A DNA stretch of 64,000 nt, from the IMG/VR virus record IMGVR_UViG_3300024257_000004; one strand, 5' to 3'. The notes beneath the pieces are model-generated. The model was not told the origin of the DNA. It ran no database searches and saw nothing but the letters and a program-made list of their open reading frames with translations. A program made the position numbers and the translations under genes. Below are positions 2,657 to 60,450 of the stretch, in pieces. The stretch is from a virus (Duplodnaviria; Heunggongvirae; Uroviricota; Caudoviricetes; Schitoviridae). Numbering within the stretch: position 1 is the stretch's first letter; the number at the start of each line of letters is the position of its first letter.

Positions 2657-3137
2657 TGTATTCCTTGTAATATTGTTTGATTGTGTCTAGTTTAACAAAC
2701 TCAAAGTTATTGTTATCTAGATTAACGTTAAAGTATCGTGAGTCTGGTATAACATCGCCATGTAGATGACCATGAATATTCCCAAGCCTGCCCCGTACTT
2801 CTTTTGGGTGAATAGGGCAATGCGATATCCACATCGATTTGTAGCAAAACAGAGGTAACTGCATCTCTACAAAAGACTCATCATAGAGTTTACGTGAATC
2901 ATGGTTACCCATAACTAATTTGATGCGGCATTTGGCTTGCGATAGCCGTTGTACATATTCTTCATAATGAGGACCGTCAAATAGAAAGTCTCCGAGGAGT
3001 AATAAAACGTCACGTTTACCTAGTGAAAGAATCATATTGATGATATAGTCATCGTGTTCTTCCACGGTACCAAATTGTGGTCTATACTTAATAATTGCCT
3101 TATGTCCTAAGTGTGTGTCTGAAGTGAAATAAACCAT
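2637..3137 (-). CDS. Ser/Thr protein phosphatase (calcineurin-like metallophosphoesterase)
   Basis: 166 aa with metallophosphoesterase motifs DTHLGH, GDFLFDG, GNHD and GHLHG. Confidence 0.8.
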   Translation of the reverse strand: MVYFTSDTHLGHKAIIKYRPQFGTVEEHDDYIINMILSLGKRDVLLLLGDFLFDGPHYEEYVQRLSQAKCRIKLVMGNHDSRKLYDESFVEMQLPLFCYKSMWISHCPIHPKEVRGRLGNIHGHLHGDVIPDSRYFNVNLDNNNFEFVKLDTIKQYYKEYNEYNSN

Positions 3138-3146
3138 AACTAACCC

Positions 3147-4622
3147 TTATAGTAGGTAAGCTGCGTTATCTACATTATACCTAGCTCTAGTTACAGCAAC
3201 ATAGTACAGGTATAATTCAGTTAGTTCATCGCTGGCTAGTAGTGGAGTAGTTCCATTACCCCTGCACTCTAAAATGTGTGACATTATACTGTCGATTGAT
3301 TGATTTACGTCATCCGCTAGTTCAACAGAATCGAAAGTTGTACCTTTACTTGTGTGTACCGTTAACAGGGAGAGGCTAGCGGTAGTACACTTCTGGTGGG
3401 ACTTAGCTGAATTATGTGCATCAATTACTCCGGCAGGTGAATGCGCGGAAATCATACGTAATGCAGGTTTAACGTCTGGGTTATCTGGGTTCTCTGAAGC
3501 TAAGTATGCCATACGTGACGGGTAGAGTTGTTGTAAATGTGTAGATTTACCCCATAGATCTGCCTGTCGCTGCATTTGTTTGTACTTAGGATTCTTCTCT
3601 TTATTACCTGGTTTGCATCTTAATAGCGCTAAAGGTAATTCGAACATCTGATTAATCTTAGCTGTAGTAGCTAGTTTATACGGCGTACCTGACTCATTAA
3701 GTTCAATCATTTTACCTATTAGTTCTGCGTTAGTACGAGTTAAATAGGCTGATGATGCGTATTCTGTCGGAACTACCGGGTATTCAAACCCAGTAAAAAC
3801 CATATCATGGTTAAATGTCGCCCTGCTAAATGCTTCTACACGTTTAGCTAATTCAGATTCGCATCTAAATGACTTAGTTAAGGATAATTCTTTAGCATCT
3901 TTGAAGTAGTCAAAAGCGTTTATACATCCCATGAATGAGAAAATAGACTGATAGGTATCACCTACTAGTACTTTCAGTTTAGCTGGGTATGCTCGTATAA
4001 TATCCAACGTAATTGGAGTTAAATCCTGACACTCATCCACAGCTAGTATGTCTGTAGTAGCAAGTTTAGTTTCACCGCTCATAACTTCCATATGAAATAC
4101 TTTAAGATAGAAAGGGTGAGTACATCCCATTTTACCTTCTACCATAGCAGTCATAATATCATTAGCTAATTTAACAGCTCCTGGTGTGTACTTATTTATA
4201 ATCTCTAGGTCATTTACGTCCATTTCAGTAGACGCACAAAATGTTTCAATAAGCTCAATAGCAGAGGGAGTCTGCCCAAATGGCTGATGAATATACTTAG
4301 GTATGTCCTTCCAAGAAATGAAAGATGTTTGACTTAGATACATAGTACTGCACTTGATAGTATTGTGAAATGCCAGTGAATGTAAAGTAGATACAATACA
4401 ATTAGAGTTCATAGATTGACGTGCTTCTTCAGCTTGCAATGTTCCAAAAACTAAATACCGGAATGACCTATTTGTATTATGTTCAAAGAACGCATCCGAA
4501 GCTTTCGACAGAGTGTACGATTTCGATGCCCCAGCTACAGCTTCTACTAATAAAGTATCTGCCGTTGGGTTTATGATCTCATCAACGATGTCTTGTTGCT
4601 GTTTTGTTAATTGATATGACAA
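3147..4622 (-). CDS. Superfamily 1 DNA helicase (UvrD/PcrA-like)
   Basis: 491 aa. Walker A-like AGASKSYT and DExx box AVDECQDL. The C-terminal motif VAVTRARYNV resembles helicase motif VI. Confidence 0.65.
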   Translation of the reverse strand: MSYQLTKQQQDIVDEIINPTADTLLVEAVAGASKSYTLSKASDAFFEHNTNRSFRYLVFGTLQAEEARQSMNSNCIVSTLHSLAFHNTIKCSTMYLSQTSFISWKDIPKYIHQPFGQTPSAIELIETFCASTEMDVNDLEIINKYTPGAVKLANDIMTAMVEGKMGCTHPFYLKVFHMEVMSGETKLATTDILAVDECQDLTPITLDIIRAYPAKLKVLVGDTYQSIFSFMGCINAFDYFKDAKELSLTKSFRCESELAKRVEAFSRATFNHDMVFTGFEYPVVPTEYASSAYLTRTNAELIGKMIELNESGTPYKLATTAKINQMFELPLALLRCKPGNKEKNPKYKQMQRQADLWGKSTHLQQLYPSRMAYLASENPDNPDVKPALRMISAHSPAGVIDAHNSAKSHQKCTTASLSLLTVHTSKGTTFDSVELADDVNQSIDSIMSHILECRGNGTTPLLASDELTELYLYYVAVTRARYNVDNAAYLL

Positions 4623-4645: not shown

Positions 4646-5734
4646 TTATTCTAACGGAGAACCGTCGTCATTACAGGCTCTGAAGTGATTACCTACAGGC
4701 TTAAGTGGTTTAAGGTCTTTTGATAAAGTTTCATACTCTATGTTCAACCAGCGTCCGACATTAGATTTAGCAATAGCTGCATCAATTAATCGTTCTTCTG
4801 CTGTACCTTTACGTTTAACGGAAAATTCAAGACCTTCCGGAGTTACACAAGTGTACACTGGATGGTTGTTCTTGTCTAGTTTAAAGTCAGTTACTCTGTA
4901 TTCGTCGTCTAGTGTTTTCTTGTACTTCCACTGGTCAGATGACCTAACGTTGTGCTTATAAAGTCCGCAGGGGTCCTTAATAACAGTACCTTCTAACCCT
5001 AGTTTCATGCAAGCATTGTAATGATCTTCAATATCTTGTAAAGTTTGACAGACTGTTCCGGTAAGTGGGTATACAAACTCAATCTTGTCTTGGTACATCA
5101 GCTCTGCCTCAACAATTAACTGTCTACGGTTAGTGTATGTATCATTAGAATCTGCAATATCAAAGATTGCAAACTCAAGCGATTTAGAAAGTTCTTTCGG
5201 CTTCTTAACCGCTGAAGTGATATCTTGAAGGTGGGTATTCTGAATATAAAGCTCACCGTTTAGTTCAGAGGATTCTAGTATAGCCATAATGTACTTGACA
5301 TCTGCCGCCAAATGTGGAATAGCCGGGTAGACTTCACCGCCACGACTAGTTAATACTAGCTCGTTATTCACTAATCTGTATGTAGCATTAACACCGTTAA
5401 GTTTTGGAGTGGAAATAAACCCAGGTTTAAACCGTTTAGATTCCCATACCTTAACTTTCATAGGTAATTGTACAGTTACTGGCGCAGACTGATCAATACT
5501 ATAACCAGACTTGATCTTCTTTTCCCATTTTGACTTAGCTTCTAGGTCAGCTTGTTGATTGTCAGTAGTTTCATTAGACTTACCGACATTCTTACCTTTA
5601 CACGAGGTAGTTTTAATCTGCATCTTGCCGTCTAGTTGGCCGAATTCGACTGTTATAACATTACCTAGTGTAGATATACTACAAACCTGGGTTGCTCCAG
5701 TTTTTGTAGCTTTATAAAGTGTCGGTAAAGTCAT
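4646..5734 (-). CDS. ATP-dependent DNA ligase
   Basis: 362 aa carrying the nucleotidyltransferase motifs of DNA ligases: motif I KLNGV(NATYR), motif III ELNGELYI, motif IV EGTVIKD, and a lysine-rich motif V. Confidence 0.7.
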   Translation of the reverse strand: MTLPTLYKATKTGATQVCSISTLGNVITVEFGQLDGKMQIKTTSCKGKNVGKSNETTDNQQADLEAKSKWEKKIKSGYSIDQSAPVTVQLPMKVKVWESKRFKPGFISTPKLNGVNATYRLVNNELVLTSRGGEVYPAIPHLAADVKYIMAILESSELNGELYIQNTHLQDITSAVKKPKELSKSLEFAIFDIADSNDTYTNRRQLIVEAELMYQDKIEFVYPLTGTVCQTLQDIEDHYNACMKLGLEGTVIKDPCGLYKHNVRSSDQWKYKKTLDDEYRVTDFKLDKNNHPVYTCVTPEGLEFSVKRKGTAEERLIDAAIAKSNVGRWLNIEYETLSKDLKPLKPVGNHFRACNDDGSPLE

Positions 5735-5736
5735 AG

Positions 5737-6423
5737 TTACTTACCGAATTTAACTTTTTTAGTTGGCTGTTTAACTGTGTCAGATCCTCCAGCAGCTGCT
5801 CCGCCACCTTGACCTCTGTTGTTTTTGATCCAGTCTTTGATGTCTTCTTCAGTTAAGTTATCTCTGTATGATATATCTGAAGCATAAGCTTGATCTTTCT
5901 CTAGTTGAGATCCGTGACCTTCCCCTTTAGTAAGTTCTTGTGCTGACGCACCTTTCTCATCGTAGAAGCCTCTAATAATTTTGTTTTCGCTGATATTATC
6001 GTTGTATTTAGAATATTCAACTTGAATTCTTACTTGGATATTACTACCGTCGAAACCTTCTAAAGCTTTAACATCTTTAGCTGCACCTTTTTTACCGATT
6101 GGTAATTCTGCGTCAACTGAATCTTCTACGTCGTTAGGGTCAATGTTACAAACTTTACACATTTTAAGGAATAATCCCATACCGATTTTGTTCTCAGAAC
6201 CATCGTTATTGTAAATTCTCATTCCACCATAGATAACTTGCTCTTGTCCTGCATGGTCTACAAATAAATCAATTGCTATTGATCCATTTTTACCTGTACT
6301 AACTACTGGAGCTAATAACGTTACCGGGTAAATACCTGATTTAGTGATGTGTTTAGAGTTTCCTCCTTCTTTAGTTGCTTGGTTTAATTCTTCTTCTGTT
6401 ACTACTTTTTTTAAAAATGCCAT
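5737..6423 (-). CDS. Hypothetical protein, possibly DNA-binding (start moved to an internal Met with a strong RBS)
   Basis: AAGGAG lies 5 nt upstream of the ATG at 6423 (MAFLKKVV...). The protein is Gly/Lys-rich at the C-terminus. The 5' extension in the ORF track overlaps the upstream gene. Confidence 0.5.
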   Translation of the reverse strand: MAFLKKVVTEEELNQATKEGGNSKHITKSGIYPVTLLAPVVSTGKNGSIAIDLFVDHAGQEQVIYGGMRIYNNDGSENKIGMGLFLKMCKVCNIDPNDVEDSVDAELPIGKKGAAKDVKALEGFDGSNIQVRIQVEYSKYNDNISENKIIRGFYDEKGASAQELTKGEGHGSQLEKDQAYASDISYRDNLTEEDIKDWIKNNRGQGGGAAAGGSDTVKQPTKKVKFGK

Positions 6424-10599: not shown

Positions 10600-11540
10600 C
10601 GTTTATATTCAACACAGCTCGTTAGGCTGTGCCGGTTCTTGCTTCGCTTACAGCGTTACAGGAAATCAAACTAACCCGGAGGATGCTGACTCGTTTGGAA
10701 CTCTATAAGCGAAGTGAACTCCTGCATGTTTCCATGCAGACTAGACTATATCATCATCCATGTAGGATGCTCACCACTTCCACCCACTTGGGTGTACTCC
10801 CTGCAAAGGGATAGTCGTTGCACGTTCCTCCGAAGAGGCTTCGCTCAGGATTGCCGGTAAATTAATACTACGGGTTTCCCTGAATTCGATGAGTTTGCTG
10901 TACACATTACTGCGTACAGGCGCTAGTTAATTAAGGTTCGAGACCAAAAATAGCCACCTGCGGATTTACGTAACCCACGAGTGACTTTGGATATATTTTG
11001 AAAAGGCACATTAGTTTGGCGAGTAGCTTCCCTATCGCTACAATAGGTAGCAATAAACTCACCAGATTTAGTGTACTGGTGTATCTCTTTAGAGCAGTGA
11101 TCATGAGTAGTTAACCCAGTATCAACTGCATGTTGAGAATTCTCCTGCTCAGTAGCCCATTCTAGGTTAGTTAAGCAGTTATTTAGCTTGTTACCATCGA
11201 TGTGGTTTACATGTGCCTTATTTTCCAAATTAGGTAAAAAAGTTTCACACATAAGTCTATGTACAGGTCTATTTCTACGAGAACCGCTATTGTCTACTAA
11301 TGTAACTATATAATAGTTGTTACTAGTATTTTTACTATTGTTTACTTGTTTAAGTATTTTAGAAGTTCCGTCTATTGTGTTTTTTCGTTTTTTGAGTGAT
11401 AGTACCTCTGTAGTCTCCCTACAGAGGTAATAGTCACTATACCCATTTATTTTTGTAAATTGTTTTTGTTCAAATACCATAGTAATCCTTTTTGTGTAGT
11501 CGAATTATAGGGGTATTTACCTTAAGTGTAACTTATGTTA
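10600..11540 (-). mobile_element. Group I intron (about 941 nt) interrupting DNA polymerase motif A, carrying an HNH homing endonuclease ORF
   Basis: Exon 1 ends with U and the intron ends with G (omega G at 10600). The 3' 320 nt (10600-10922) is GC-richer than flanking DNA and contains GNRA/UUCG-capped helices (CUGCAUG-GAAA-CAUGCAG, CCUC-UUCG-GAGG, GGG-AAA-CCC). An in-frame stop follows exon 1. Removal restores a perfect PolA motif A. Confidence 0.65.
10923..11480 (-). CDS. HNH homing endonuclease (intron-encoded)
   Basis: 185 aa with HVNHIDGNKLNNCLTNLEWATEQEN, an HNH motif followed by an AP2/NUMOD-like region. It lies inside the intron within the polymerase gene. Confidence 0.75.
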   Translation of the reverse strand: MVFEQKQFTKINGYSDYYLCRETTEVLSLKKRKNTIDGTSKILKQVNNSKNTSNNYYIVTLVDNSGSRRNRPVHRLMCETFLPNLENKAHVNHIDGNKLNNCLTNLEWATEQENSQHAVDTGLTTHDHCSKEIHQYTKSGEFIATYCSDREATRQTNVPFQNISKVTRGLRKSAGGYFWSRTLIN

Positions 11541-12603: not shown

Positions 12604-13270
12604 TGTTAAGCTCCTTTATTTGTTTCTTCATATCATTGTATAAATACATTGTTGCACATGCATCCACAGCTGCGTATTCAAGCATCTTAGGGTCCATTTT
12701 GTTAGCTTCAGTAAATTCTAGCTCATCGGCAATAGACCATTCACCGTATACGGATCCTGCTAAATGCTTCAGTCCTGTAAGTGCTTTACTAATATCACAG
12801 TGGTTGATTAATGTTTTAGCTAAGATCTGCGTATCTTCATAATTCTTAGGGAATCGACCAGTGAAATATCTAATTAATTTACCATCGTAACCTAAGTTAT
12901 GCCATATTTGCTTAATTTCCGTTGTAACTATCCAGTTAAGTACATACTCGTGAATTTCCGGGTTAAATACTATAACAAATGAATCATATTCAGATGTAGC
13001 AATTGACATGTGAGTTATCTGTATTAATGATGGGTGTGATAACCCGTCTGATGTAGTAACTTGGTTAAGATATACTAATTCCGGATCACGAAAGGGCACA
13101 TCAAGTTCCTCACGGTAATCTTTAGCTGCTACTACTTCCTCCTTAGAGTAAATAGAGGCAGCTTCAAAATCGGCAGCGATTGGTTTATTTGCTGGTAGAT
13201 TAGCCAGGGCTTGTTTGACTTGAGGTAACGTTGTATAGTGTACCCAGTCTACTTTACGAAATGGGTTCAT
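12542..13270 (-). CDS. DNA polymerase 3'-5' exonuclease domain (separate ORF or frameshifted N-terminal part of PolA)
   Basis: 242 aa. The Exo I motif is IAADFEAAS, typical of DnaQ-like proofreading domains. It ends 62 nt inside the next ORF, in a different frame. Confidence 0.65.
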   Translation of the reverse strand: MNPFRKVDWVHYTTLPQVKQALANLPANKPIAADFEAASIYSKEEVVAAKDYREELDVPFRDPELVYLNQVTTSDGLSHPSLIQITHMSIATSEYDSFVIVFNPEIHEYVLNWIVTTEIKQIWHNLGYDGKLIRYFTGRFPKNYEDTQILAKTLINHCDISKALTGLKHLAGSVYGEWSIADELEFTEANKMDPKMLEYAAVDACATMYLYNDMKKQIKELNNEQPTEPALDVSTTTGPFSI

Positions 13271-29888: not shown

Positions 29889-30476
29889 TCGTATGTGTGC
29901 ACTATAACTGGTGCACACACCAGGATTCTTTTATATCCCGAATTCCCTTACCATCGGCAATAGCTTACGGCTATCAATCTGATAAACACAATAGGAAGAG
30001 GTTAGAAGTAAACTCCTGCCTCGTACTATTGATTATGTAGTGCGTCTGCCGTCTGATCACTACCCGTTTGTTCGTAGGCTACGTATTCGAGATAAGTGAA
30101 TATCCAATAACTCTACACCTGTGCTTTCACTAGCGTTTCATGCAGATCAGTTAGATCACCTAACAACTATACACCGTGAGCATCTCTTCCAGAGGTCGAC
30201 GTTTGGGAGACTCTATAACTGCTGTATAACGTGTACTTGACGGATCAATGTCTTTTGGGCTCTACTGTGACTTAGCCTAGGATGTCTGCTTGTTTCGGCA
30301 CGTTCCTAGGTACAGTTGATGTATAGCTGTTAGCTAATCTAAATACTCAAGCAGACCAAGTCTTGAGCAATCTTTAGGGTCAGCCCTCGACCAAAGGGTA
30401 TAAATTATATAGAAGTCTTTTAGGCTCATACTCAGGAGCTAGGTCTAGTTATTAGGGTCAAGGTGACCACACCTGG

Positions 30477-33454: not shown

Positions 33455-33458
33455 AAGG

Positions 33459-33540
33459 TTACCATATCAGGAATCGAACCTGAGACATCTTGCTTGTTTG
33501 CATTTTAAGGCAAGCGCTCTACCGACTGAGCTATACGGTA
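33459..33540 (-). tRNA. tRNA, type II (long variable arm), Leu-like with UAA in the anticodon loop; anticodon stem-loop irregular (4-bp stem, 8-nt loop)
   Basis: The minus-strand RNA reads UACCGUA-UA-GCUC-AGUCGGUA-GAGC-G-CUUGC-CUUAAAAU-GCAA-(14-nt variable)-UCAGG-UUCGAUU-CCUGA-UAUGGUA-A. The acceptor, D-arm and T-arm are canonical. Confidence 0.6.
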
Positions 33541-33546
33541 ATAGGT

Positions 33547-33692
33547 TACTCGAGTAGGGATTGAACCTACGGCCTTCATCGTGTAATGGTAAATCTGCTA
33601 GGATTTGAACCTAGAACCCCTAGACTAAGCTAGTGCTCTAACCAGTTGAGCTACAGATTTTGGATGACGCTCTACCACTGAGCTACCGAGTA
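33547..33692 (-). tRNA. tRNA-like gene interrupted in its anticodon loop by a complete second tRNA gene (outer gene; probable pseudo-tRNA or processed composite)
   Basis: The 5' half reads UACUCGG-UA-GCUC-AGUGGUA-GAGC-G-UCAUC-CA. The 3' half reads UUACAC-GAUGA-AGGCC-GUAGG-UUCAAUC-CCUAC-UCGAGUA-A. The acceptor halves (UACUCGG/UCGAGUA) and anticodon-stem halves (UCAUC/GAUGA) are complementary across a 73-nt insert. Confidence 0.5.
33588..33660 (-). tRNA. tRNA nested inside the anticodon loop of the outer tRNA-like gene (encoded CCA; anticodon arm noncanonical)
   Basis: The RNA reads AAAUCUG-UA-GCUC-AACUGGUUA-GAGC-...-CUAGG-UUCAAAU-CCUAG-CAGAUUU-A-CCA. The acceptor stem, D-arm and T-arm are perfect. 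The anticodon region (ACUAG-CUUAGU-CUAGG) has only a 6-nt loop. Confidence 0.5.
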
Positions 33693-42012: not shown

Positions 42013-42103
42013 AAAAGTTCCTTACGTTAATATATAAATAATTGAGTAATAACTTATATATTACCGTAGAGTAAAAAAGGGAACTGAATCCCTTTTAGTT
42101 AGA

Positions 42104-42433
42104 CTATAATAGTCCTTCGCCGTTACTAGCTGATGATTCAGATACGATACATCTAAGTACTGCGTTATTCGCAATTAACTTAGCAATCTCTACCTTTCTA
42201 TCTGCTTTCTTAGGTATAGCTGTTACTGCGTCCGTAATTGCTACGTATTCAGCGGTAACTGTTGCCCATTTAGAGTCCTCATCGATTAACATCGATACAG
42301 GCATTTGACCGTAAGCAGTTTCTACTTTTGGTTCAGTTGTAGGCATACCTGCTCCGTATACTGCTACCGCAGCTTCTACGGCTTCTGTTAATTTCTTGAA
42401 ATCTTGTTTCTTAATCGCTTTGCTTAATGACAT
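42104..42433 (-). CDS. Hypothetical protein (start moved to an internal Met with RBS)
   Basis: AAGGAG-N5-ATG at 42433 (MSLSKAIKK...). The longer ORF in the track overlaps the upstream gene by 77 nt. Confidence 0.45.
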   Translation of the reverse strand: MSLSKAIKKQDFKKLTEAVEAAVAVYGAGMPTTEPKVETAYGQMPVSMLIDEDSKWATVTAEYVAITDAVTAIPKKADRKVEIAKLIANNAVLRCIVSESSASNGEGLL

Positions 42434-42506
42434 AATGTCTCCTTTAGTTTTGGTTATTGTGTCTGTACACACAATAAAGCAGAGTAATATCTGCTCTATG
42501 TACGTA

Positions 42507-51234: not shown

Positions 51235-53163
51235 TTATTTAAGTGCCATAGGGTCACACTTAAAGTCAGTTGTTAGAGGGTTAATTTGTTTACTAAGTTT
51301 TTGCCATTCCTTCATAGCATTACTGTTAAGTCTGATAGATTTGAAGTAATTATTCAGAATAGCTTCTCTATCTGCGTATACATCTTCTATTTTAGTTGCG
51401 TATAGTTCTCTAGTTTGTTGCGCATGTACAGGAGATACTATAAATGCGTCGTGTATAGTTAAAGCCCAAGGTAAAGCTTCACCGATTGAGTCAGCAATTT
51501 GACTATCAAGGTTATGTATTAGTAGTGTTTGGAAGTATCTTTTGAACTGTTTTAAGTCTGGTACTTTATGCGTATGTGTATGCGCTATGGCAAGTACAGA
51601 TCTATCAGCAGTAGAGTAGATAGGGTATCTTCTAGTGTAGTCTCCTACATTCTTGAATTTATTACAAGATATAGTAAATTCTTCATTCCAAATCTTTACA
51701 TCCATACTTTGAGATGGTTGTGCGTTATCAATTACCATGTTCTTGAAGTCATTAGCTACTGCGTAGAAGCCGTTCTTTACTTCGAAAGACATTAATGCTA
51801 ACTGCTTAGTAGTGTAGTCTAATCCTTTCTTATCCCAAAGAGTTTTAACTGTCTGAGATGAACCGTATAATGTAGGTGTAGCGTACGACTTAACTTGTAA
51901 CCTACTGATATTGTCTAAATGCCAAGGATCAGTGATACCAGTGTTAGTTAATACGTTAGTTGCTTCCATATAAGGTGTGTGGTTAAGTAATACACCAGTA
52001 AGTTGAAGCATAGATGCTGATGCGTCTAACTCAATAGGTACGTAAGAGTAGAAAGGTTCATCAGTATTTCTACTAAAGAATGCATCTAGCTCGTCATACA
52101 ATCTTTCTAGCCAAATTAGCTCGTGTAATTCACTTCTGTCATGGTCAGCTCGTGCTATTTCAGCCGTAACTTCATCGTCAGTCATGAACGAAGTTAATAC
52201 TTCTTGACAGTCTAGCTTAGGTAATTCTCTGTTTTTATACATTTCTTTACCGATTCTAGCCTTATCCTGTTCACTATCGCAGAATTTAGTACCATTTAGT
52301 TCAGCAATAAATAAGTAGATTGCATGTGTATACGCTCTTGCTTCTTTGAATGAGTTTGTTGGTACTAACGTAGCTGGATTAATAAGTAATGCTCTCGCAT
52401 CTTTGAATCCAATAGGGTTAAATACTTTCTTAAGTGCGTTAGATATAGCTCTACCTCTAGAGTCGTTGTAGTTAGCTCCAAGTGTAAACTCTTCTTCTGA
52501 GTACATATGGTAGTCAACGATATCTTTAGATATAGAATTATAATCTGCTCCATCTTCTACTAGTTCGTGTATTTCAGCAACTTTTCTCATAGATTTAGTT
52601 ACATTCATAACTATTGCATCATAGTACTTATATAAGTAATCTGTGTCATACTTAAAAGAGTTAGTTCCTGTAGTAGCGAACCCGTTTCTTGTAAGTCCAG
52701 TGTCTAACACTCTACCGTTTTGCTTAGTTAGGTTAGCGGCTGCGATATTTGGTTTATACTCTAGTTTATACTTGTTAAACTTAATAGCTTTTCTGATATT
52801 AGTAATAACTTCTTGAGGTACTACTTCTAGTAGTTTAGCTTCTACTAACTCTATTTCAGCCCAGTGTCTAGCTGGTACTACAATAGAGTTAATCCAACCT
52901 GCATCACTTAAATTCTTAAGGAATTGGTTGAATACTTTAGGATCTTCAAATTTATCATACCAGTAAGTAGTAGATATTGTAGATTTATTCTTAAGGTAGT
53001 TAGTCCATAGGTTCTTCCACATACTCTCCATTAGTTGTGTTGGTTCTTTGATTAAGTCTAATACTTCTACCGGAAAGCTTAGTTTACCTTGCTCTAGTTC
53101 TAATCTGAACTGCACTCTCTGCGCTAATCTTTGTTTTACTGTTGATATTACATTTACTGACAT
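51235..53163 (-). CDS. Single-subunit DNA-dependent RNA polymerase (T7-like / N4 RNAPII-like), 642 aa
   Basis: Motif A is LDASASMLQ (T7 DGSCSGIQH). Motif B is VKSYATPTLYGSS (T7 KRSVMTLAYGS). Motif C is LTIHDAFIV (T7 LIHDSFGT). The size is close to the fused N4 RNAPII p4 plus p7 (673 aa). Confidence 0.75.
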   Translation of the reverse strand: MSVNVISTVKQRLAQRVQFRLELEQGKLSFPVEVLDLIKEPTQLMESMWKNLWTNYLKNKSTISTTYWYDKFEDPKVFNQFLKNLSDAGWINSIVVPARHWAEIELVEAKLLEVVPQEVITNIRKAIKFNKYKLEYKPNIAAANLTKQNGRVLDTGLTRNGFATTGTNSFKYDTDYLYKYYDAIVMNVTKSMRKVAEIHELVEDGADYNSISKDIVDYHMYSEEEFTLGANYNDSRGRAISNALKKVFNPIGFKDARALLINPATLVPTNSFKEARAYTHAIYLFIAELNGTKFCDSEQDKARIGKEMYKNRELPKLDCQEVLTSFMTDDEVTAEIARADHDRSELHELIWLERLYDELDAFFSRNTDEPFYSYVPIELDASASMLQLTGVLLNHTPYMEATNVLTNTGITDPWHLDNISRLQVKSYATPTLYGSSQTVKTLWDKKGLDYTTKQLALMSFEVKNGFYAVANDFKNMVIDNAQPSQSMDVKIWNEEFTISCNKFKNVGDYTRRYPIYSTADRSVLAIAHTHTHKVPDLKQFKRYFQTLLIHNLDSQIADSIGEALPWALTIHDAFIVSPVHAQQTRELYATKIEDVYADREAILNNYFKSIRLNSNAMKEWQKLSKQINPLTTDFKCDPMALK

Positions 53164-53225: not shown

Positions 53226-53882
53226 TTATGCTGTTTTATACACGATATCTGCTACTTCATCATTGTTAGATGGGTCCAGTAGTTTGTTGTCCTCATATTG
53301 AGTATTAGCTTTTATTACAGCTTTGTCTTCAAGCACTTGTAGTTTGTCCTGATTGATTTGACTAAAGTTCACTGCTGCTAATCCGATTTCTCTTGCTACT
53401 GTTTCTAAGATTGCTCTCATTTCGTGGGCATTGCCTATAGCGCCTGGTACTACTGATCCAGTTAATTTGTCGAAGTAAGTATTTCTACCTGCTACGTCTG
53501 GGAATGCATTAGCTCTCAGTTCTAGTGTACTAGCGAAGTACGATAATTCTGGGTTAAGAGCTATAGCTTCATTTAGAGCTTCTCTACCAGCTTTCTTCTG
53601 GAATTGGATTGTTCTAATAGCTCCGATTAGTGCATTTGCTTGAGTACCGAAGTTAAATTCTTGGTATCTTGCGAAATGCCTATCACTAATGCTGTCCAGC
53701 GGTTTAGTTATTGCTAATAGCACGGCGTCATCCGCCAGTGTTACTTGATCATTAACGTACTTGTCCGAGTTGATGTAGTTAAGCTCATTTTCTAGTTTGA
53801 TTACCTCTATTCTCTCTGTTGCTTCTACTTTTCTAGCCTTACTTGCTTCATTGATCTTGTTGATTAATTCTTGTTTTGTCAT
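53226..53882 (-). CDS. Hypothetical protein
   Basis: 218-aa ORF. Confidence 0.5.
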   Translation of the reverse strand: MTKQELINKINEASKARKVEATERIEVIKLENELNYINSDKYVNDQVTLADDAVLLAITKPLDSISDRHFARYQEFNFGTQANALIGAIRTIQFQKKAGREALNEAIALNPELSYFASTLELRANAFPDVAGRNTYFDKLTGSVVPGAIGNAHEMRAILETVAREIGLAAVNFSQINQDKLQVLEDKAVIKANTQYEDNKLLDPSNNDEVADIVYKTA

Positions 53883-53974
53883 GTGTTTAATTCCTGTGTT
53901 TATTTTATTTGTTAGTATTCTATCACTTTGTTATGATATACCAGGTGTACGGCTAGTTTTTTGACAGTTACGGT

Positions 53975-53993
53975 CATATCATAAATTAACGGT
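53975..53993 (-). promoter_or_regulatory. Conserved intergenic motif copy a (TCATATCATAAATTAACGG), candidate phage promoter
   Basis: Shares the 14-nt core ATCATAAATTAACG with three other intergenic sites. It lies about 95 nt upstream of the leftward gene starting at 53882. Confidence 0.4.
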
Positions 53994-54007
53994 AAAGTAC
54001 GATGTAC

Positions 54008-54241
54008 TTAGTTGTTAATTATCTTAGCTTCTGGGTTATGTTGTGCCCAGTTACCACTATCCAGTTCTTGCATTAGTTCTGGGTAGTTACTATATAGCTT
54101 GTCTATCATCTTCTCTTTGATATAAGTTTCTATATTTCTATCGAAGTTGATGCTACCGTTTATATACATCGATAACGTACACTTTCTGTGTTCATCGTAA
54201 AATGTCATACCAGTTAGCGGGTGCATTGTTTGTAATTTCAT
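54008..54241 (-). CDS. Hypothetical protein (start at internal Met with AGGAGA RBS)
   Basis: 77 aa. The ATG at 54241 (MKLQTMHPLTG...) overlaps the upstream stop (ATGA). Confidence 0.45.
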   Translation of the reverse strand: MKLQTMHPLTGMTFYDEHRKCTLSMYINGSINFDRNIETYIKEKMIDKLYSNYPELMQELDSGNWAQHNPEAKIINN

Positions 54242-54489
54242 TATATATCTCCTATAATGTCTGATAAGTCTTCTAGTTCTATCGGCAGTTCCCATAGAAT
54301 ATCCTTGAATGCTGCACTCGTTTTGAATTCACTGTCTGCTGTCCATACTTGTGCACAAGCGAACTCAAACGATTCTGGATTATCGGATATATCCCATTCT
54401 AGGTATTCAGCGTACAGTTCTTGTAGTTTCTCATTATTCTCTCCGACAAACGTTTCTAGGTCGTCTATTCGGTAATATTTAGTTTTCAT
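54241..54489 (-). CDS. Hypothetical acidic protein
   Basis: 82-aa ORF. Confidence 0.45.
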   Translation of the reverse strand: MKTKYYRIDDLETFVGENNEKLQELYAEYLEWDISDNPESFEFACAQVWTADSEFKTSAAFKDILWELPIELEDLSDIIGDI

Positions 54490-54552
54490 TAGTTAATCCT
54501 CTCTATAAAGTATATTGTTAGTGTTACTATAAACATTGTTAGCAGTATGTTG

Positions 54553-54783
54553 TTAGTCATTAGATATTTCCTTAGTATTTAGTTTATGTTGAAAGTATAG
54601 TGGTGCTTCAAAAGCTTTTACAGCTAGCATCCTATCTTCCTCAGTAATTTCTATACCCAGTTGGATAGACATAACTTCTACAGGTACACTGTGTAAGTCC
54701 ATCTCATAGATGTCCAGTATTACCTGTTCAGCTTCTTCTAATGTTACACTAGGTTCAGCTGGTTTAATATCGAATATATTCAT
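54553..54783 (-). CDS. Hypothetical protein
   Basis: 76-aa ORF. Confidence 0.4.
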   Translation of the reverse strand: MNIFDIKPAEPSVTLEEAEQVILDIYEMDLHSVPVEVMSIQLGIEITEEDRMLAVKAFEAPLYFQHKLNTKEISND

Positions 54784-54786
54784 AGA

Positions 54787-55128
54787 TTAAGCTCCTACTA
54801 TTTGCTCTATTGTTGGAACTTTGTGTAGTTCCCACCACTCCGACCCATCATACTCATCTCGAGTAAGCCACGTACCGTTGTTTAGCAGTACCGTCCCAGT
54901 TAGGTGTTGCACACCATACCCAGAGTCGTACTCTAGATCTGCTGGGATAGTGCAGTTGTCTATCTCTATCCCTTTAATCTCTAAGGCACGAATTAGTAAT
55001 GACTCCCCATTATCCGTACCTGATTTGTAGTTAGGATTGGAAATGCTTAGGCGCATGCTATATGCTACTATGTCACTTAGCTGTGCTGGACTGATAGCGT
55101 CTTTTAATTCTTGTAGTACGTTTGTCAT
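54787..55128 (-). CDS. Hypothetical protein
   Basis: 113-aa ORF. Confidence 0.45.
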   Translation of the reverse strand: MTNVLQELKDAISPAQLSDIVAYSMRLSISNPNYKSGTDNGESLLIRALEIKGIEIDNCTIPADLEYDSGYGVQHLTGTVLLNNGTWLTRDEYDGSEWWELHKVPTIEQIVGA

Positions 55129-55567
55129 GTTATGCTCCTTAAGCTCACCTATGGTATAATAGGTATGGTCCTAGTTACTTACTAGGTGGTATGGTTTATA
55201 GTTGGACTATAGTAGTATTATTGGTGTGGTACATGGTGGTAGTTGAGGTTATTCTGAAGAGTAGGTTGTAAAATCCGCTGTAGCCAGTCCTCTCTCATCG
55301 CTATAAGGACGTAATTCGAAGTATTCGTAACGAACATTGCTCGAAGTCGTATCGCTTTGCTAGGTATAACTACGGAGCTGTAATAGAGTCTCTCTTTTTG
55401 GATTTACTCTCTTACCTGTGAAGAGAAGGTGAGGACTTACGTCCTACTGTTGATTGCTCTAGCTTCTTCTAGGCTACTACATACTGTTCCGTTGTTCGCT
55501 ATCCATATCATGTTTTCTCCTTTAGATTAGTTGTTAGTACAATACTCCGAAGAGTACTGCGTAATTA

Positions 55568-55840
55568 CTACGAATTAGTAGCTGGTTTGTTCATGTTTCT
55601 AAGGAGGTCTTCGATTTCCTTGTTAGTTACTACGTTATCTATATTGTTTATAGAGTCGAATTGCTCACTACGCTTTTCAGCGTTCATTATCAGCACGTCG
55701 TTTCTGTACGTCTTTAAACTATCATCAGCTGTCACATTTACTGTATCTACTACAGTTTCAGCAGTTGATGCTAATCCTTTGATCGAGTCTTTGAACCAAA
55801 ATAGTAAGAATAGTCCCGCAATTAATATTAGTGTTTCCAT
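55568..55840 (-). CDS. Small membrane protein
   Basis: 90 aa with an N-terminal transmembrane helix (METLILIAGLFLLFWF). Confidence 0.45.
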   Translation of the reverse strand: METLILIAGLFLLFWFKDSIKGLASTAETVVDTVNVTADDSLKTYRNDVLIMNAEKRSEQFDSINNIDNVVTNKEIEDLLRNMNKPATNS

Positions 55841-55930
55841 GTTGTTGTCCTTTGTTGATATTAGTTAGTACTTAGCTATTGTACTAAGCTGTGGTTGTCC
55901 CTGATGGACGTAGTTAGCTACTAATTTAGC

Positions 55931-55950
55931 CTTATCATAAATTAACGCAG
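55931..55950 (-). promoter_or_regulatory. Conserved intergenic motif copy b (CTTATCATAAATTAACGCAG)
   Basis: Same 20-nt motif. It sits in a roughly 60-nt tandem duplicated unit upstream of the gene starting at 55840. Confidence 0.4.
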
Positions 55951-55990
55951 CTGTACGTTGTACTAAGTGCTGTTGTTAGTAGTAATTAGT

Positions 55991-56010
55991 CTTATCATAA
56001 ATTGACGAAG
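55991..56010 (-). promoter_or_regulatory. Conserved intergenic motif copy c (CTTATCATAAATTGACGAAG)
   Basis: The second copy in the tandem duplication. The flanking GTACTAAGTGCYTGTTG is also repeated (55963 and 56057). Confidence 0.4.
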
Positions 56011-56107
56011 GTGTACCGTACGTTGAGTGACGAGCTAGTACTATTACGTCGTACTAAGTGCCTGTTGTACTCTCTTGTACCCCTTACTAAAAACAAAGAG
56101 ATAGACC

Positions 56108-56389
56108 CTAAAGGTCTATTTCGATGTTTGTCGGTGCTGGATTATTAAGACGGTGTCTTACTAGTCCGCATATGTGAGGACCGTCGTCTTCACCGTATAG
56201 CTCCTCGAGCGTTTGTCCATTCAGTTTTTGACTGAATAGGATGCCGTATTGTACGGCCTTGTCTTTACTTGTAAAGTCAGCGTAAGCTGGTTGGTTGATT
56301 AGAGAGTTAGCGATCTTATCAGCAATTGTGTATTTAGTTTTTAATTCCATTCGAAATCCTTTTAGTATGTAGTTTTGGGTTAGAAACAA
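56108..56389 (-). CDS. Hypothetical protein
   Basis: 93 aa. It is the last gene of the leftward block. Confidence 0.45.
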   Translation of the reverse strand: MFLTQNYILKGFRMELKTKYTIADKIANSLINQPAYADFTSKDKAVQYGILFSQKLNGQTLEELYGEDDGPHICGLVRHRLNNPAPTNIEIDL

Positions 56390-56447
56390 TGCAGGTGGTC
56401 CTCGCCTTGCTCACGCAGGAGAATCTTTAGATTATTCCTTATCATAA

Positions 56448-56467
56448 ATTAACGAAGCGTAGCGTAG
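56448..56467 (-). promoter_or_regulatory. Conserved intergenic motif copy d (CTTATCATAAATTAACGAAG)
   Basis: Lies 60 nt upstream of the leftward gene starting at 56389. It is an exact match to the consensus. Confidence 0.4.
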
Positions 56468-56801
56468 GAAAAAGGGTCCCTTTTCTGGAAGAAACTTGAC
56501 CGGGGGGTACTTGTTCTGGGAGCAGGCTCCAAGCAGGTATACTGCCCACATTCAGAGAATTATAAAAATCAGTAAAAACAAAACTTAAACCAACCTTAAA
56601 CACCCCCTCCTGTACATAAGCCTTGAGGTTTTCCTGTAGTACCACGACTGAGCGAGTCCTGCTCGAATCGTAGGAGCACACGAAGAAGCGCAGCGACTGA
56701 GTAGTGCAACGGAGATTGAGTAAAGGATGAGTCGAAAGAGTGTGTACGGAATGGAAAATCGAATAGGCGTCCCTTCGGCAAAGATTAAGATTTCACCTAA
56801 T

Positions 56802-56937
56802 CGGGGTCAACTACTATAATATAACAGTACCTACCAGAAAAATAGAACATAACAGGGGTCGTGTACCCGATGAACACCGAAAAGTACCCTAAATAGTTAG
56901 AGTTATAAGGTACAAACAAGGGTCGTTATGTTATAAT
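56802..56937 (+). promoter_or_regulatory. Tandem promoter-like modules GGGTC-N6/7-TATAAT (56802-56820 and 56920-56937) upstream of the rightward operon
   Basis: A(A/C)AGGGGTCG(T) is repeated at 56802, 56851 and 56916. Copies 1 and 3 are followed at fixed spacing by TATAAT (56815-56820, 56932-56937). The second box lies about 28 nt before the RBS and ATG at 56966. Confidence 0.4.
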
Positions 56938-56965
56938 GGTACATATATTAGATAAAGGGGTTGAT

Positions 56966-57691
56966 ATGACAGATGTAAAAACTAGAGCTGGTACTGATGG
57001 AGCATTTCCTATTAATGAAGAATTAGCTGGGTTAGTTCCTATGGCTATTGCTAGTGAACAAGCTGTACTTACAATGGATATAAACGAACATGGTCAACGT
57101 GAGCCTATAGTGTTATGGAAAGGTGAGGTAGTAGATGGCCGGTGTAGACAAAAGGCGCTTATAACATTAGGTAAAGACTTGTATTATAAGGAATTAGATA
57201 GTGCTCTTACTGAGGATGAAGTGAAGATATTCGTTAAGAGTGTGAATACTAGACGAAACCTAACACAGACGCAGAAGATAATGAGCGCTTGTAGAGATTC
57301 CCTTAAGTCTAATAGTAAGTCAATAGTTGATACAGCTAAAGCCTGGGGTATTGGTGATAAGACTTTGAAGAATGCTAGATACGTAGCTAAGCAACGTCCT
57401 GAGTTCATAGATCCACTGTTCAATGGTAAGACTGTTACTATAGTTAATGTGAAAGGTGAGGAGATCGAAAGTAATAAGATCACAGCGATTTATGCTTTTA
57501 TTAAGAGGTTAGAGGAAGCAGTTATTGAGGATGTGGAGCATGCTTGGGATGAAAGGGCTGCTATCAAGACGCAAGCTGGAAAAGAGTGGTATTATAAACA
57601 AATGTCTGATATACAGGACTACGGTGACGTTAAAGCTAAGATGCTTATCGCAGAATTAGCGAATTATAAGTTTAAACAGAATAAAGATTAA
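56966..57691 (+). CDS. ParB-like nuclease domain protein
   Basis: GQREPIVLWKGEVVDGRCRQKA matches the ParB/Srx motif (PIvV....liDGhhRl.A). The start is AAAGGGG-N5-ATG at 56966; the ATG at 56936 in the track lacks an RBS. Confidence 0.6.
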   Translation: MTDVKTRAGTDGAFPINEELAGLVPMAIASEQAVLTMDINEHGQREPIVLWKGEVVDGRCRQKALITLGKDLYYKELDSALTEDEVKIFVKSVNTRRNLTQTQKIMSACRDSLKSNSKSIVDTAKAWGIGDKTLKNARYVAKQRPEFIDPLFNGKTVTIVNVKGEEIESNKITAIYAFIKRLEEAVIEDVEHAWDERAAIKTQAGKEWYYKQMSDIQDYGDVKAKMLIAELANYKFKQNKD

Positions 57692-59733: not shown

Positions 59734-59809
59734 GCTGTTGTAGCTCAGTTGGTAGAGCACCTCACTTGTAATGAGGCGGTCGGTGGTTCAAATCCTCTCA
59801 ACAGCTCCA
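59734..59809 (+). tRNA. tRNA-Thr (anticodon UGU)
   Basis: GCUGUUG-UA-GCUC-AGUUGGU-AGAGC-A-CCUCA-CUUGUAA-UGAGG...CAACAGC-U-CCA. The cloverleaf has a 7-bp acceptor stem and an encoded CCA. Confidence 0.8.
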
Positions 59810-59810
59810 C

Positions 59811-59886
59811 GGGGAATTAGCTCAGCTGGGAGAGCGTCTGCCTTGCACGTAGAAGGTCATCGGTTCGAACCCGATATTCTCCACCA
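59811..59886 (+). tRNA. tRNA-Ala (anticodon UGC)
   Basis: GGGGAAU-UA-GCUC-AGCUGGGA-GAGC-G-UCUGC-CUUGCAC-GUAGA-AGGUC-AUCGG-UUCGAAC-CCGAU-AUUCUCC-A-CCA. A G3:U70 pair is present, as expected for tRNA-Ala. Confidence 0.85.
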
Positions 59887-60022
59887 TATGAATTTATTAG
59901 ACACTGATTATGGAACCGGTAAATTAACTGGGGACTATTGAGTTAGAACACAATCTCTGTTCCGTGAATTCACAACACATATCTGCTCCGCCTCTCTATG
60001 AAGCGCAACCGAGCAGGTCTTT

Positions 60023-60097
60023 GGTCCCTTCATCTAATGGTTAGGATTTTGGATTTTCATTCCAACCATAGGAGTTCGAATCTCCTAGGGATCACCA
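60023..60097 (+). tRNA. tRNA-Glu (anticodon UUC)
   Basis: GGUCCCU-UC-AUCU-AAUGGUUA-GGAU-U-UUGGA-UUUUCAU-UCCAA-CCAU-AGGAG-UUCGAAU-CUCCU-AGGGAUC-A-CCA. Confidence 0.8.
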
Positions 60098-60100
60098 TAT

Positions 60101-60174
60101 TGACGTATCGCCAAGCGGTAAGGCCGTAGCTTTTGGTGCTACTATCCTAGGTTCGATCCCTAGTGCGTCATCCA
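60101..60174 (+). tRNA. tRNA-Gln (anticodon UUG)
   Basis: UGACGUA...GUAGC-UUUUGGU-GCUAC-UAUC-CUAGG-UUCGAUC-CCUAG-UGCGUCA-U-CCA. Confidence 0.8.
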
Positions 60175-60189
60175 TAAATAATAATAAGT

Positions 60190-60266
60190 GCGGTTGTAGT
60201 TTAGTTGGTTAGAATGCCTGCCTGTCACGCAGGAGGTCGCGAGTTCGAGTCTCGTCAACCGCGCCA
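60190..60266 (+). tRNA. tRNA-Asp (anticodon GUC)
   Basis: GCGGUUG-UA-GUUU-AGUUGGUUA-GAAU-G-CCUGC-CUGUCAC-GCAGG-AGGUC-GCGAG-UUCGAGU-CUCGU-CAACCGC-G-CCA. Confidence 0.85.
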
Positions 60267-60271
60267 CTTTT

Positions 60272-60347
60272 TCCGAATTAGCTCAGTTGGTAGAGCGCAC
60301 GACTGTTAATCGTGTTGTCGATGGTTCGAGCCCATCATTCGGAGCCA
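60272..60347 (+). tRNA. tRNA-Asn (anticodon GUU)
   Basis: UCCGAAU-UA-GCUC-AGUUGGU-AGAGC-G-CACGA-CUGUUAA-UCGUG-UUGUC-GAUGG-UUCGAGC-CCAUC-AUUCGGA-G-CCA. Confidence 0.85.
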
Positions 60348-60362
60348 CAAATTTAAAATGTA

Positions 60363-60450
60363 GAGAGTTGACAGAGTTGGTCGAATGTACCGGTTTTGAA
60401 AACCGGCGAGGTTTACGCCTCCAGCGGTTCGAATCCGCTACTCTCTGCCA
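60363..60450 (+). tRNA. tRNA-Ser (anticodon UGA), type II with long variable arm
   Basis: AGAGAGU...CCGGU-UUUGAAA-ACCGG-(variable arm CGAGGUUUACGCCUCC)-AGCGG-UUCGAAU-CCGCU-ACUCUCU-G-CCA. Confidence 0.8.

Follow-up and report, generated by a model that had tools for sequence, protein, structure and literature searches.

Early promoters in the systems closest to this phage

The phage analyzed here is an uncultured marine phage and a distant relative of N4, and its closest isolates are the Alteromonas AD45 phages. In N4, the virion polymerase gp50 reads the early promoters P1–P3, which are grouped where the early block begins, point in the direction of the genes, and precede the RNAPII genes. 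Each possesses a 5–7-bp hairpin with a 3-nt purine-centered loop on the template strand, with a GC-rich heptamer centered at −11. Initiation by the N4-type virion RNA polymerase (RNAP) is resistant to rifampicin, needs no protein synthesis, and takes place on single-stranded or supercoiled DNA. LUZ7, an N4-like system with three polymerases, has tandem early promoters 33 nt apart, as mapped by ONT-cappable-seq, and the small early genes behind them are highly expressed; each of these promoters shows a 3-nt loop on a stem of 4 bp or more, with transcription starting at a G 13–14 nt downstream. The promoters of the T7, T3, and SP6 polymerases are spread through the genes that each enzyme expresses, and in T7 several further promoters (the A1–A3 cluster) are grouped before the phage polymerase gene. 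To our knowledge, N4 and LUZ7 are the only N4-like phages for which promoters of virion-delivered or RNAPII-type polymerases have been mapped, and we know of none in the large AD45-like marine group.

The N4 RNAPII type does not use double-stranded promoters unaided (PMC4496689); the N4 enzyme requires cofactors and recognizes only weak AT-rich sites (PMC4496689; PMC9163698). In AD45-P1, the virion polymerase comprises two polypeptides (PMC3821669). An RNAPII homolog was reported to be absent in the original AD45 description; the AD45 group does encode one, which in AD45-P1 is split by a homing endonuclease.

A four-copy element at the start of the leftward block

In the window, i.e., the whole 64-kb stretch of DNA analyzed, TATCATAAATTRACG occurs exactly four times, only on the plus strand, against approximately zero occurrences expected by chance. 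The repeat noticed in a preliminary description of this DNA is therefore real. The 14-nt core ATCATAAATTRACG is matched exactly at 53978, 55934, 55994, and 56441, on the plus strand in all four cases, and the genes that follow the copies are on the minus strand. The 20-mer CTTATCATAAATTRACGMAG is matched exactly by copy b (55931–55950), copy c (55991–56010, with G at the R position), and copy d (56438–56457, the first copy past the strand switch); shuffled sequence gives a mean of 0.03 matches with up to three mismatches allowed. Copy a (53975–53994), whose minus-strand reading is ...CCGTTAATTTATGATATG, is in register and has the exact core, with 16 of the 20 positions matching. The 20-nt motif first attributed to all four copies thus holds for b, c, and d, while copy a retains only the core, and the fourth copy, originally placed at 56448–56467, was off by 10.

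A 15-nt block is common to the four copies, with the R position as its sole variable site, and the part invariant in all of them is TATCATAAATT-ACG. The likeness among copies b, c, and d reaches approximately 22 nt, and we take the repeated element to be 16–20 nt long with an AT-rich core. No dyad or inverted repeat was found inside the invariant block, and such an asymmetric core is expected of a directional signal. Copies b and c are arranged in tandem, as was described initially, with c placed 60 nt further upstream. The GTACTAAGTGC repeat (55954–55970 and 56045–56061), which was thought to belong to the same unit, has a spacing of 91 nt, so that b and c do not form a simple 60-nt tandem unit. 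Eight contigs of this phage are 100% identical across the motif region, and within-phage variation is consequently uninformative.

The placement of the copies relative to the genes should be noted. All four copies fall in intergenic gaps (53883–54007, 55841–56107, and 56390–56935), although intergenic DNA makes up only approximately 12% of the window, and all are oriented with the minus-strand genes, as the preliminary description had stated. The first leftward early gene encodes 80 aa (56108–56350, minus strand), and copy d precedes its ATG by 89 nt. Copies c and b are 152 and 92 nt, respectively, from the single ATG of the second leftward gene (90 aa, 55568–55840, minus strand). Copy a is 94 nt upstream of the ATG of a 218-aa gene (53226–53882, minus strand) that directly precedes the gene of an RNAPII-like polymerase (51235–53163, minus strand). 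Judging from gene size and position only, a gene of approximately 203–240 aa occupies this place directly before the polymerase gene in every relative examined. All copies thus fall within the opening 2.5 kb of the leftward block, and the polymerase gene sits just downstream of the cluster.

No further copies are found in the window, in the 10 kb past its right end (L136), or in approximately 10 kb past its left end (L139 and L141). This search, which the preliminary description had proposed to extend beyond the window, covered approximately 84 kb of the approximately 115-kb genome and found no copy within genes or in the reverse orientation. Specifically, the motif is absent downstream of the RNAPII-like gene, both from the 51 kb of leftward genes below 51235 and from the next 10 kb, and it was not found in the replication-gene region. 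The last result led us to reject the N4 RNAPII middle promoter, a short AT-rich start before middle or replication genes, as an identity for the motif.

These features bear on whether the element, rather than being a promoter, is an asymmetric operator or “stoperator” to which a DNA-binding regulator of the phage or host attaches to turn early transcription on or off. Regulators typically have repeated sites of 15–20 nt in early regulatory DNA, a 113-aa early protein encoded nearby (54787–55128) shows a weak excisionase-like helix-turn-helix match, and the junction of AD45-P1 contains GTATAAC words in both orientations beside a ParB-like gene. However, the absence of dyad symmetry in the core is contrary to an operator for a dimeric repressor, the copies all point the same way and keep a fixed distance of approximately 90 nt from start codons, and no other minus-strand promoter candidate exists beside them. 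We regard a regulator site as improbable.

Two T7-family polymerases as candidate readers

The phage encodes two T7-family polymerases, a 642-aa RNAPII-like enzyme and a split N4 gp50-like virion polymerase located outside the window. The single-subunit 642-aa enzyme, equivalent to a gp15–gp16 fusion, has hundreds of homologs in a protein search, by which the AD45-like marine group is widespread in metagenomes. The profile of its family matches N4 RNAPII gp16 (6dt7_B, E = 2.8e-5), and motifs A, B, and C all align, which bears out the initial statement that this phage possesses a single-subunit RNAP. Asp380 lies in motif A and Asp572 in motif C. R421-x3-K425-x7-Y433-G434-S435 fits motif B by spacing, which is that of the R-x3-K-x7-YGS pattern in T7, the LYGS stretch alone being aligned. 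The enzyme is approximately 240 residues shorter than T7 RNAP and is minimal in the manner of N4 RNAPII.

For the virion polymerase, a 1355-aa ORF (L139:16922–20989) matches residues 2620–3449 of N4 vRNAP (E = 2e-21), and a 2579-aa ORF comes before it. The pair is homologous to the two virion polypeptides of AD45-P1, and the enzyme thus differs from that of N4 in being split in two. The large virion subunit is seen as its C-terminal 426 residues only, where a VHDA stretch aligns with IHDA of AD45. A sequence search of the AD45 large virion subunit against solved structures gave no match.

Given these genes, the repeat is most likely a start signal for one of the phage's own RNA polymerases. 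From the repeat, its placement, the polymerase genes, and the motifs of relatives, we infer that the copies act as promoters, which polymerase reads them, and where transcription starts. As our leading reading, held at slightly less than even confidence, the four copies would be promoters of leftward early transcripts that are read by a phage T7-family polymerase and not by that of the host, most likely by the gp50-like virion enzyme. Copy d would drive the first small gene, whose transcript would end at a terminator-like hairpin with a T-run (56101–56119, minus strand) located at the 3′ end of that gene, between d and the c/b pair. The next genes would be driven by the tandem pair c and b, and the 218-aa and RNAPII-like polymerase genes by copy a. 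The virion polymerase is expected to enter the cell with the DNA and then to get the RNAPII-like gene expressed; such an enzyme is available before any phage protein is made. Since all copies are upstream of the RNAPII-like gene, the virion polymerase is by position the more likely reader. The distance of 89–94 nt to the start codon in three of the four copies, the common orientation, and the intergenic location are consistent with this assignment.

The other candidate reader, implied by the preliminary description, is the 642-aa enzyme itself, which would be made from another promoter, fire d, c, b, and a, and read through the 56-kb leftward block. It truly belongs to the T7 family and its catalytic motifs are intact, and the asymmetric conserved 16–20-nt element is of T7-type promoter size. 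A junction module conserved clade-wide upstream of copy d could give the first transcript and could itself be the true first early promoter. The leftward genes are all co-oriented with short gaps, making read-through from copy a conceivable. However, all the copies are upstream of the polymerase gene and none precedes any of the approximately 70 downstream genes, whereas the known phage enzymes of this type (T7, T3, and SP6) have their promoters distributed over the genes they express. In addition, the enzyme is minimal, and its N4 counterpart is the cofactor-requiring RNAPII limited to weak AT-rich sites (PMC4496689; PMC9163698). We consider this assignment rather unlikely.

Like the class II/III promoters of T7, T3, and SP6, the element is asymmetric, approximately 20 nt long, lineage-specific, intergenic, and in the orientation of the genes, and in both cases the sequence varies between related phages. 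Unlike the element, however, T7-type promoters lie downstream of the polymerase gene across middle and late genes, and the T7, T3, and SP6 consensus sequences show no similarity to the motif. The proposal of a phage-RNAP promoter in the preliminary description is thus supported in part, namely as regards the promoter-like traits (asymmetry, intergenic location, common orientation, regular spacing, and counterparts in relatives), and the analogy with T7 calls for revision, since it predicts promoters downstream of the polymerase gene. The N4 early promoters offer several likenesses. A few copies (three in N4 and four here) are grouped where the early block begins, in gene orientation and ahead of the RNAPII genes, the conserved block is approximately 17–20 nt, and both gp50-like and RNAPII-like polymerases are encoded. 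As in LUZ7, the promoters would lie before small early genes, though the tandem copies c and b are 60 nt apart instead of 33 nt. The repeat is an element of the expected kind with a new sequence.

Local structure around the copies

An inverted repeat, AAGTAC-atc-GTACTT (53995–54009, minus strand), adjoins copy a on its upstream side, with the loop center 10 nt before the core, and GTAC-aac-GTAC (55953–55963, minus strand) is found at the same distance upstream of copy b. Their stems are 6 bp and 4 bp, respectively, with 3-nt loops, while copy c has only a degenerate stem of 3 bp and copy d has no hairpin at the corresponding position. GTAC at positions −8 to −5 is common to copies a, b, and c and is missing from d. 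The folding energy at the copies is no better than that of shuffled sequence in all four cases (z = −0.7 to +0.9). An upstream hairpin is thus present at two of the four copies only, and the invariant block, in contrast to N4, is AT-rich and not self-complementary. That the defining N4 hairpin (a 3-nt loop on 5–7 bp) is not found consistently at the four copies counts against a gp50-like reader, and the LUZ7 geometry is likewise inconsistent here. If the gp50-like virion enzyme reads the copies, it would recognize mainly the 16–20-nt sequence itself, perhaps aided at a and b by the short GTAC inverted repeat on the upstream side.

The same geometry is relevant to the idea that the element acts in RNA, as a leader for processing, antitermination, or a translational regulator, in transcripts starting further upstream. 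With a start 11–14 nt past the loop center, as in N4 and LUZ7, transcripts would include the block at copies a and b; moreover, the distance to start codons is constant, and the block is AU-rich and unstructured like RNase E sites. Contrarily, no conserved secondary structure accompanies the element, 53800–57000 contains no Rfam match, and no minus-strand σ70-type promoter is predicted upstream of d, though the clade-conserved junction module is present there. A terminator-like hairpin at 56470–56485 precedes copy d, and read-through from further upstream therefore looks limited. ORFs from the ATG inside the motif have 2, 5, 11, and 21 codons and are not conserved. Action in RNA appears the least probable of the explanations considered. 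A leader peptide was rejected, since these 2–21-codon ORFs are mutually unrelated.

Parallel motifs in relatives

Three relatives (L013, L146, and L012) have polymerases 52–54% identical to the 642-aa enzyme. Each carries its own different motif in three or four copies, on the gene strand only and upstream of the polymerase gene only, with the last copy just before the pair of an approximately 220-aa gene and the polymerase gene. The chance expectation for these motif sets is 0.01–0.3. Simple word searches of L010, L147, L148, and L149 gave no comparably clear motif set.

The unrelated motifs at the same positions in relatives are unexpected if a conserved host sigma factor is the reader. This observation weighs against the copies being strong early host σ70 promoters with TATGAT as the −10 element, an explanation suggested by the agreement of TATGAT with TATAAT at five of six positions and by the clustering of several promoters before the phage polymerase gene, as in the T7 A1–A3 cluster. 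Furthermore, there is no acceptable −35 element at 16–18 nt and no TG extension, a consensus scan of the minus strand predicts nothing at any copy, and the invariant block would sit in the normally unconserved spacer. Host σ70 promoters are accordingly a highly improbable explanation. We also rejected a rightward σ70 promoter, because TTGACG/TTAACG as a plus-strand −35 element has no −10 partner and is antisense to the genes.

In the early region of AD45-P1, no counterpart of the motif was found; besides the GTATAAC words, which occur in either orientation, the region contains a pair of hairpin-plus-T-run units spaced 60 nt apart. The early block of the AD45 relatives is not at a genome end, in contrast to N4. 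In AD45-P1 it lies inside the genome, so that the N4 argument of early genes being “injected first” cannot be transferred directly.

In L012, three of the four copies are preceded by 6–7-bp stems of differing sequence, followed by a T-run. The template-strand loops are GAA-centered (GAA in two and TGAAG in the third), with z = −2.7 to −3.6. This hairpin and T-run layout is the same as the architecture of N4 early promoters. It is possible, though doubtful, that the gp50-like enzyme of AD45-like phages reads a linear AT-rich 16–20-nt sequence and not the DNA hairpin of N4. If so, the hairpin would be dispensable or lineage-specific in one clade, being present in L012, vestigial in the phage studied here, and missing from L013 and L146. 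A second mode of promoter recognition would then exist within the giant virion polymerase family, and the relatives found here would form a natural series for how the switch happened. The candidate early promoter and its differing counterparts in relatives provide concrete templates for testing polymerase recognition, and the candidate motif helps to delimit early genes in uncultured genomes.

Database scans and other words in the genome

Megablast of the region against phage genomes gave no close DNA relative, and back-translated peptide patterns found no relatives in IMG/VR. A 15-mer scan of IMG/VR returned single chance matches only, apart from an unrelated contig (L106) with two copies belonging to its own longer repeat. 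A 20-mer scan of metagenome contigs, in a collection that evidently lacks some samples containing this phage, recovered the phage once (L144), together with two unrelated chance matches within coding-like sequence (L142 and L143). A de novo search for a second intergenic motif gave mostly noise, from which only the short word CTATTTAAC stood out; this word is separate from the motif and is enriched in the replication-gene region.

Distribution of the motif around the strand switch

The 20-mer CTTATCATAAATTRACGMAG occurs exactly at 55931–55950 (copy b), 55991–56010 (copy c), and 56438–56457 (copy d) in the window; shuffled sequence gives a mean of 0.03 matches even when three mismatches are tolerated. 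The preliminary description counted four copies of one 20-nt motif. This holds for the 14-nt core ATCATAAATTRACG, which has four exact matches (53978, 55934, 55994, and 56441), but copy a (53975–53994) agrees with the 20-mer at only 16 of 20 positions, and copy d had been placed 10 nt too high, at 56448–56467. Weaker core matches elsewhere are no more frequent than expected by chance. TATCATAAATT-ACG is invariant across the aligned copies, and the minus-strand reading is (C/T)(C/G/T)CGT(T/C)AATTTATGATA(A/T)G. As originally described, all four copies lie in intergenic gaps, which make up about 12% of the window. The four core matches are all on the plus strand. The distances from the motif end to the next ATG are 94, 92, 152, and 89 nt for copies a to d, respectively. 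The word GTACTAAGTGC, said to repeat with the unit of about 60 nt containing copies b and c, recurs at a spacing of 91 nt, not 60 nt.

Of the genome-wide search that had been proposed, about 84 of 115 kb was covered; this gave no further copies in the rest of the window, 10 kb past its right end, or about 10 kb past its left end. Scans of public sequence collections for the motif added nothing useful. In this region, the contigs that other samples yielded for this phage do not differ from the window. The metagenome contig L006 (1–607, joining window 56405) agrees fully with the window as far as this position, which lies 33 nt downstream from copy d, and continues with tail-fibre-like ORFs in place of copy d and the junction; it represents a recombinant genome or else a chimeric assembly.

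Between about 56350 and 386 the genes run leftward, and rightward genes start from 56936, the change of direction coinciding with a switch in composition skew. Copies a to d therefore fall in the first 2.5 kb of the leftward block. Along the direction of transcription, copy d comes first, followed by an 80-aa gene with a terminator-like hairpin at its end (56101–56119), copies c and b spaced 60 nt apart, a 90-aa gene and several small genes without assigned function, and then copy a, a 218-aa gene (53226–53882, minus strand), and a 642-aa gene (51235–53163, minus strand). The replication and nucleotide-metabolism genes are downstream of the last. The repeat is a real feature and very probably a set of phage-specific early promoters; its sequence is new and comes from an N4-related clade that has been little studied.

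A sigma-70-like promoter (TTCACC, 17 nt, TATAAT) is located at 56792–56820 on the plus strand, 116 nt ahead of the gene that opens the rightward block (56936), which fits transcription of this block by the host polymerase.

Two phage-encoded polymerases

The proposal that the phage encodes a single-subunit RNA polymerase is borne out by the 642-aa gene. We assign its product as a single-chain, minimal N4 RNAPII-like polymerase because a profile built from 23 of its metagenomic homologs matches N4 RNAPII gp16 (6dt7_B, E=2.8e-5), motifs A (PIELDAsAS) and C (HDAF) are aligned together with LYGS from motif B, and the invariant residues R421, K425, and Y433-G434-S435 are spaced as in T7. Hundreds of metagenomic homologs were found, each a single chain of 590–675 aa and none with a Pfam domain.

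No close DNA match was found among phage genomes. Apart from the metagenomic homologs, the 642-aa protein has matches only in the Alteromonas podoviruses AD45-P1 to P4 (42% identity). AD45-P1 has N4 gp43-, gp57-, gp59-, gp68-, and gp69-like genes and a gp50-like region. Contrary to their description, the AD45 phages do have an RNAPII homolog; it is broken into three ORFs, with a GIY-YIG nuclease gene among them (gp044, gp046, and gp048 of AD45-P1, L001:9007–12370).

Two ORFs on the opposite strand, of 2579 and 1355 aa, lie outside the window to its left (L139:16922–22271). The 1355-aa protein matches residues 2620–3449 of the N4 virion polymerase (E=2e-21). Both proteins are homologs of two AD45-P1 polypeptides, which the paper on the AD45 phages assigned to the N- and C-terminal portions of gp50 and reported as identifiable in polyacrylamide gels (PMC3821669). 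The gp50-like polymerase is split in the same way in both phages. The RNAPII-like gene and the split gp50-like ORFs indicate that the phage carries the N4 set of two T7-family polymerases of its own.

Counterpart motifs in relatives

The motif of the window is absent from the relatives. Three of them, whose polymerases are 52–54% identical, each have a different motif of their own: CTACTAATGTAYTTCCAT in L013 (3 copies, chance expectation 0.01), TAYTTCCATTYA in L146 (4 copies, 0.03), and TTCTATCTATTGG in L012 (4 copies, 0.29). All of these copies match the gene strand and none the other; they fall past the strand switch and ahead of the polymerase gene, and in each relative the last one directly precedes the pair of a gene of about 220 aa and the polymerase gene. 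Simple word searches gave no clear motif in L010, L147, L148, and L149. The same position combined with diverged sequence favors recognition of the signal by a phage protein that evolves fast over recognition by the host sigma factor. A host polymerase promoter, with TATGAT as its −10 box, is accordingly disfavored by the unrelated motifs of the relatives; moreover, TATGAT has neither a −35 box nor a TG extension, the promoter scan is blank at the copies, and the invariant block would be placed in the spacer. We regard this reading as improbable, and a regulator site or an RNA-level element likewise.

Short tandem repeats distinct from the promoter-like motifs are also present in the early regions of two relatives, namely CTTCTCCATAYAC repeated four times (L012:4417–4535) and 11-nt and 15-nt units (L145:226–500).

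Hairpins and the proposed reader of the motif

Inverted repeats are located upstream of copy a (AAGTAC-atc-GTACTT) and copy b (GTAC-aac-GTAC), with 10 nt from loop center to core in both. Copy c has GTAC-g-GTAC, where a 3-nt loop is impossible, and copy d has no inverted repeat at the equivalent position, only an AAAAGG-gac-CCTTTT hairpin further upstream. Folding is no better than that of shuffled sequence in any of the four regions. Given these inconsistent repeats and the folding results, the hairpin of N4 early promoters is present in the window only as traces. Three of the four L012 copies have upstream stems of 6–7 bp with differing sequences, followed by a T-run, and their folding is better than that of shuffled sequence (z = −2.7 to −3.6). 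On the template strand, two of these copies have a GAA loop and the third, with a 6-bp stem, a TGAAG loop; the sequence at the fourth copy is GCTTCGC, which the template strand reads as GCGAAGC. This layout is the architecture described for the early promoters of N4 (PMC4496689) and LUZ7 (PMC9163698).

As judged from position and analogy only, the virion polymerase is the most economical reader of the motif, and the copies may well, though by no means certainly, be its early promoters. N4 has a comparably small early promoter cluster. The virion enzyme, already there at infection, would read the copies and drive the RNAPII gene. Recognition by the RNAPII-like enzyme itself seems unlikely, since all four copies are upstream of the gene that encodes it and no copy was found in about 61 kb downstream of that gene, and since it is a minimal enzyme of the kind of N4 RNAPII, which depends on cofactors and uses weak AT-rich sites (PMC4496689). 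The motif would gain in interest if the virion polymerase were proved to read a hairpin-less promoter.

Conserved junction module

A module at the divergent junction is kept clade-wide on the early-gene strand, at 56470–56570 in the window (minus strand), L001:3024–3130, L010:~150–260, L012:~3090–3200, L146:~3760–3870, L147:~5040–5150, and L149:~6120–6230. Its parts are an AT-rich box (TGAATTTTATAATTTTTTGG-like), GTACCCCCC about 45 nt on, and GGGwCCCTTTTT about 25 nt further, and in the window it ends about 15 nt upstream of copy d. As RNA, it folds no better than shuffled sequence. This module could be the real first promoter. The AD45-P1 junction (L001:2800–2995) also contains GTATAAC/GTTATAC words in both orientations beside a ParB-like gene, and two AAGT-tat-ACTT hairpins 60 nt apart, both with a T-run after them.

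Other repeated words and features

CTATTTAAC occurs seven times against 1.5 expected, six of them on the gene strand (53183, 42510, 30476, 18541, 10157, and 3739, minus strand; 37596, plus strand). Three copies border a large intergenic gap or immediately precede the RNAPII-like gene. The ATTTAA within the word resembles the short AT-rich start sites of N4 middle genes, and CTATTTAAC is a possible second promoter class. The leftward block has intergenic gaps of 440–650 nt at 55129–55567, 42013–42506, 29919–30476, and 12604–13253, which have no Rfam match and contain no ORF of 50 aa or more. The 13–15-nt word AAGGATAACTAATG, comprising ribosome-binding site, spacer, and start codon, recurs unchanged before six different minus-strand genes (plus-strand coordinates 13268, 26986, 27439, 27648, 27866, and 48973).

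A group I intron (10722–10943, minus strand; Rfam 99.8 bits) lies inside the DNA polymerase A region, called as several pieces, beside an HNH gene. Two tRNA-like genes (33457–33540 and 33587–33660, minus strand) score 56–62 bits with the Rfam tRNA model, and ARAGORN gives them abnormal anticodon loops of four bases (taaa) and two bases (ta). Seven tRNA genes (Thr, Ala, Glu, Gln, Asp, Asn, and Ser) are clustered in the rightward block at 59734–60450 (plus strand).
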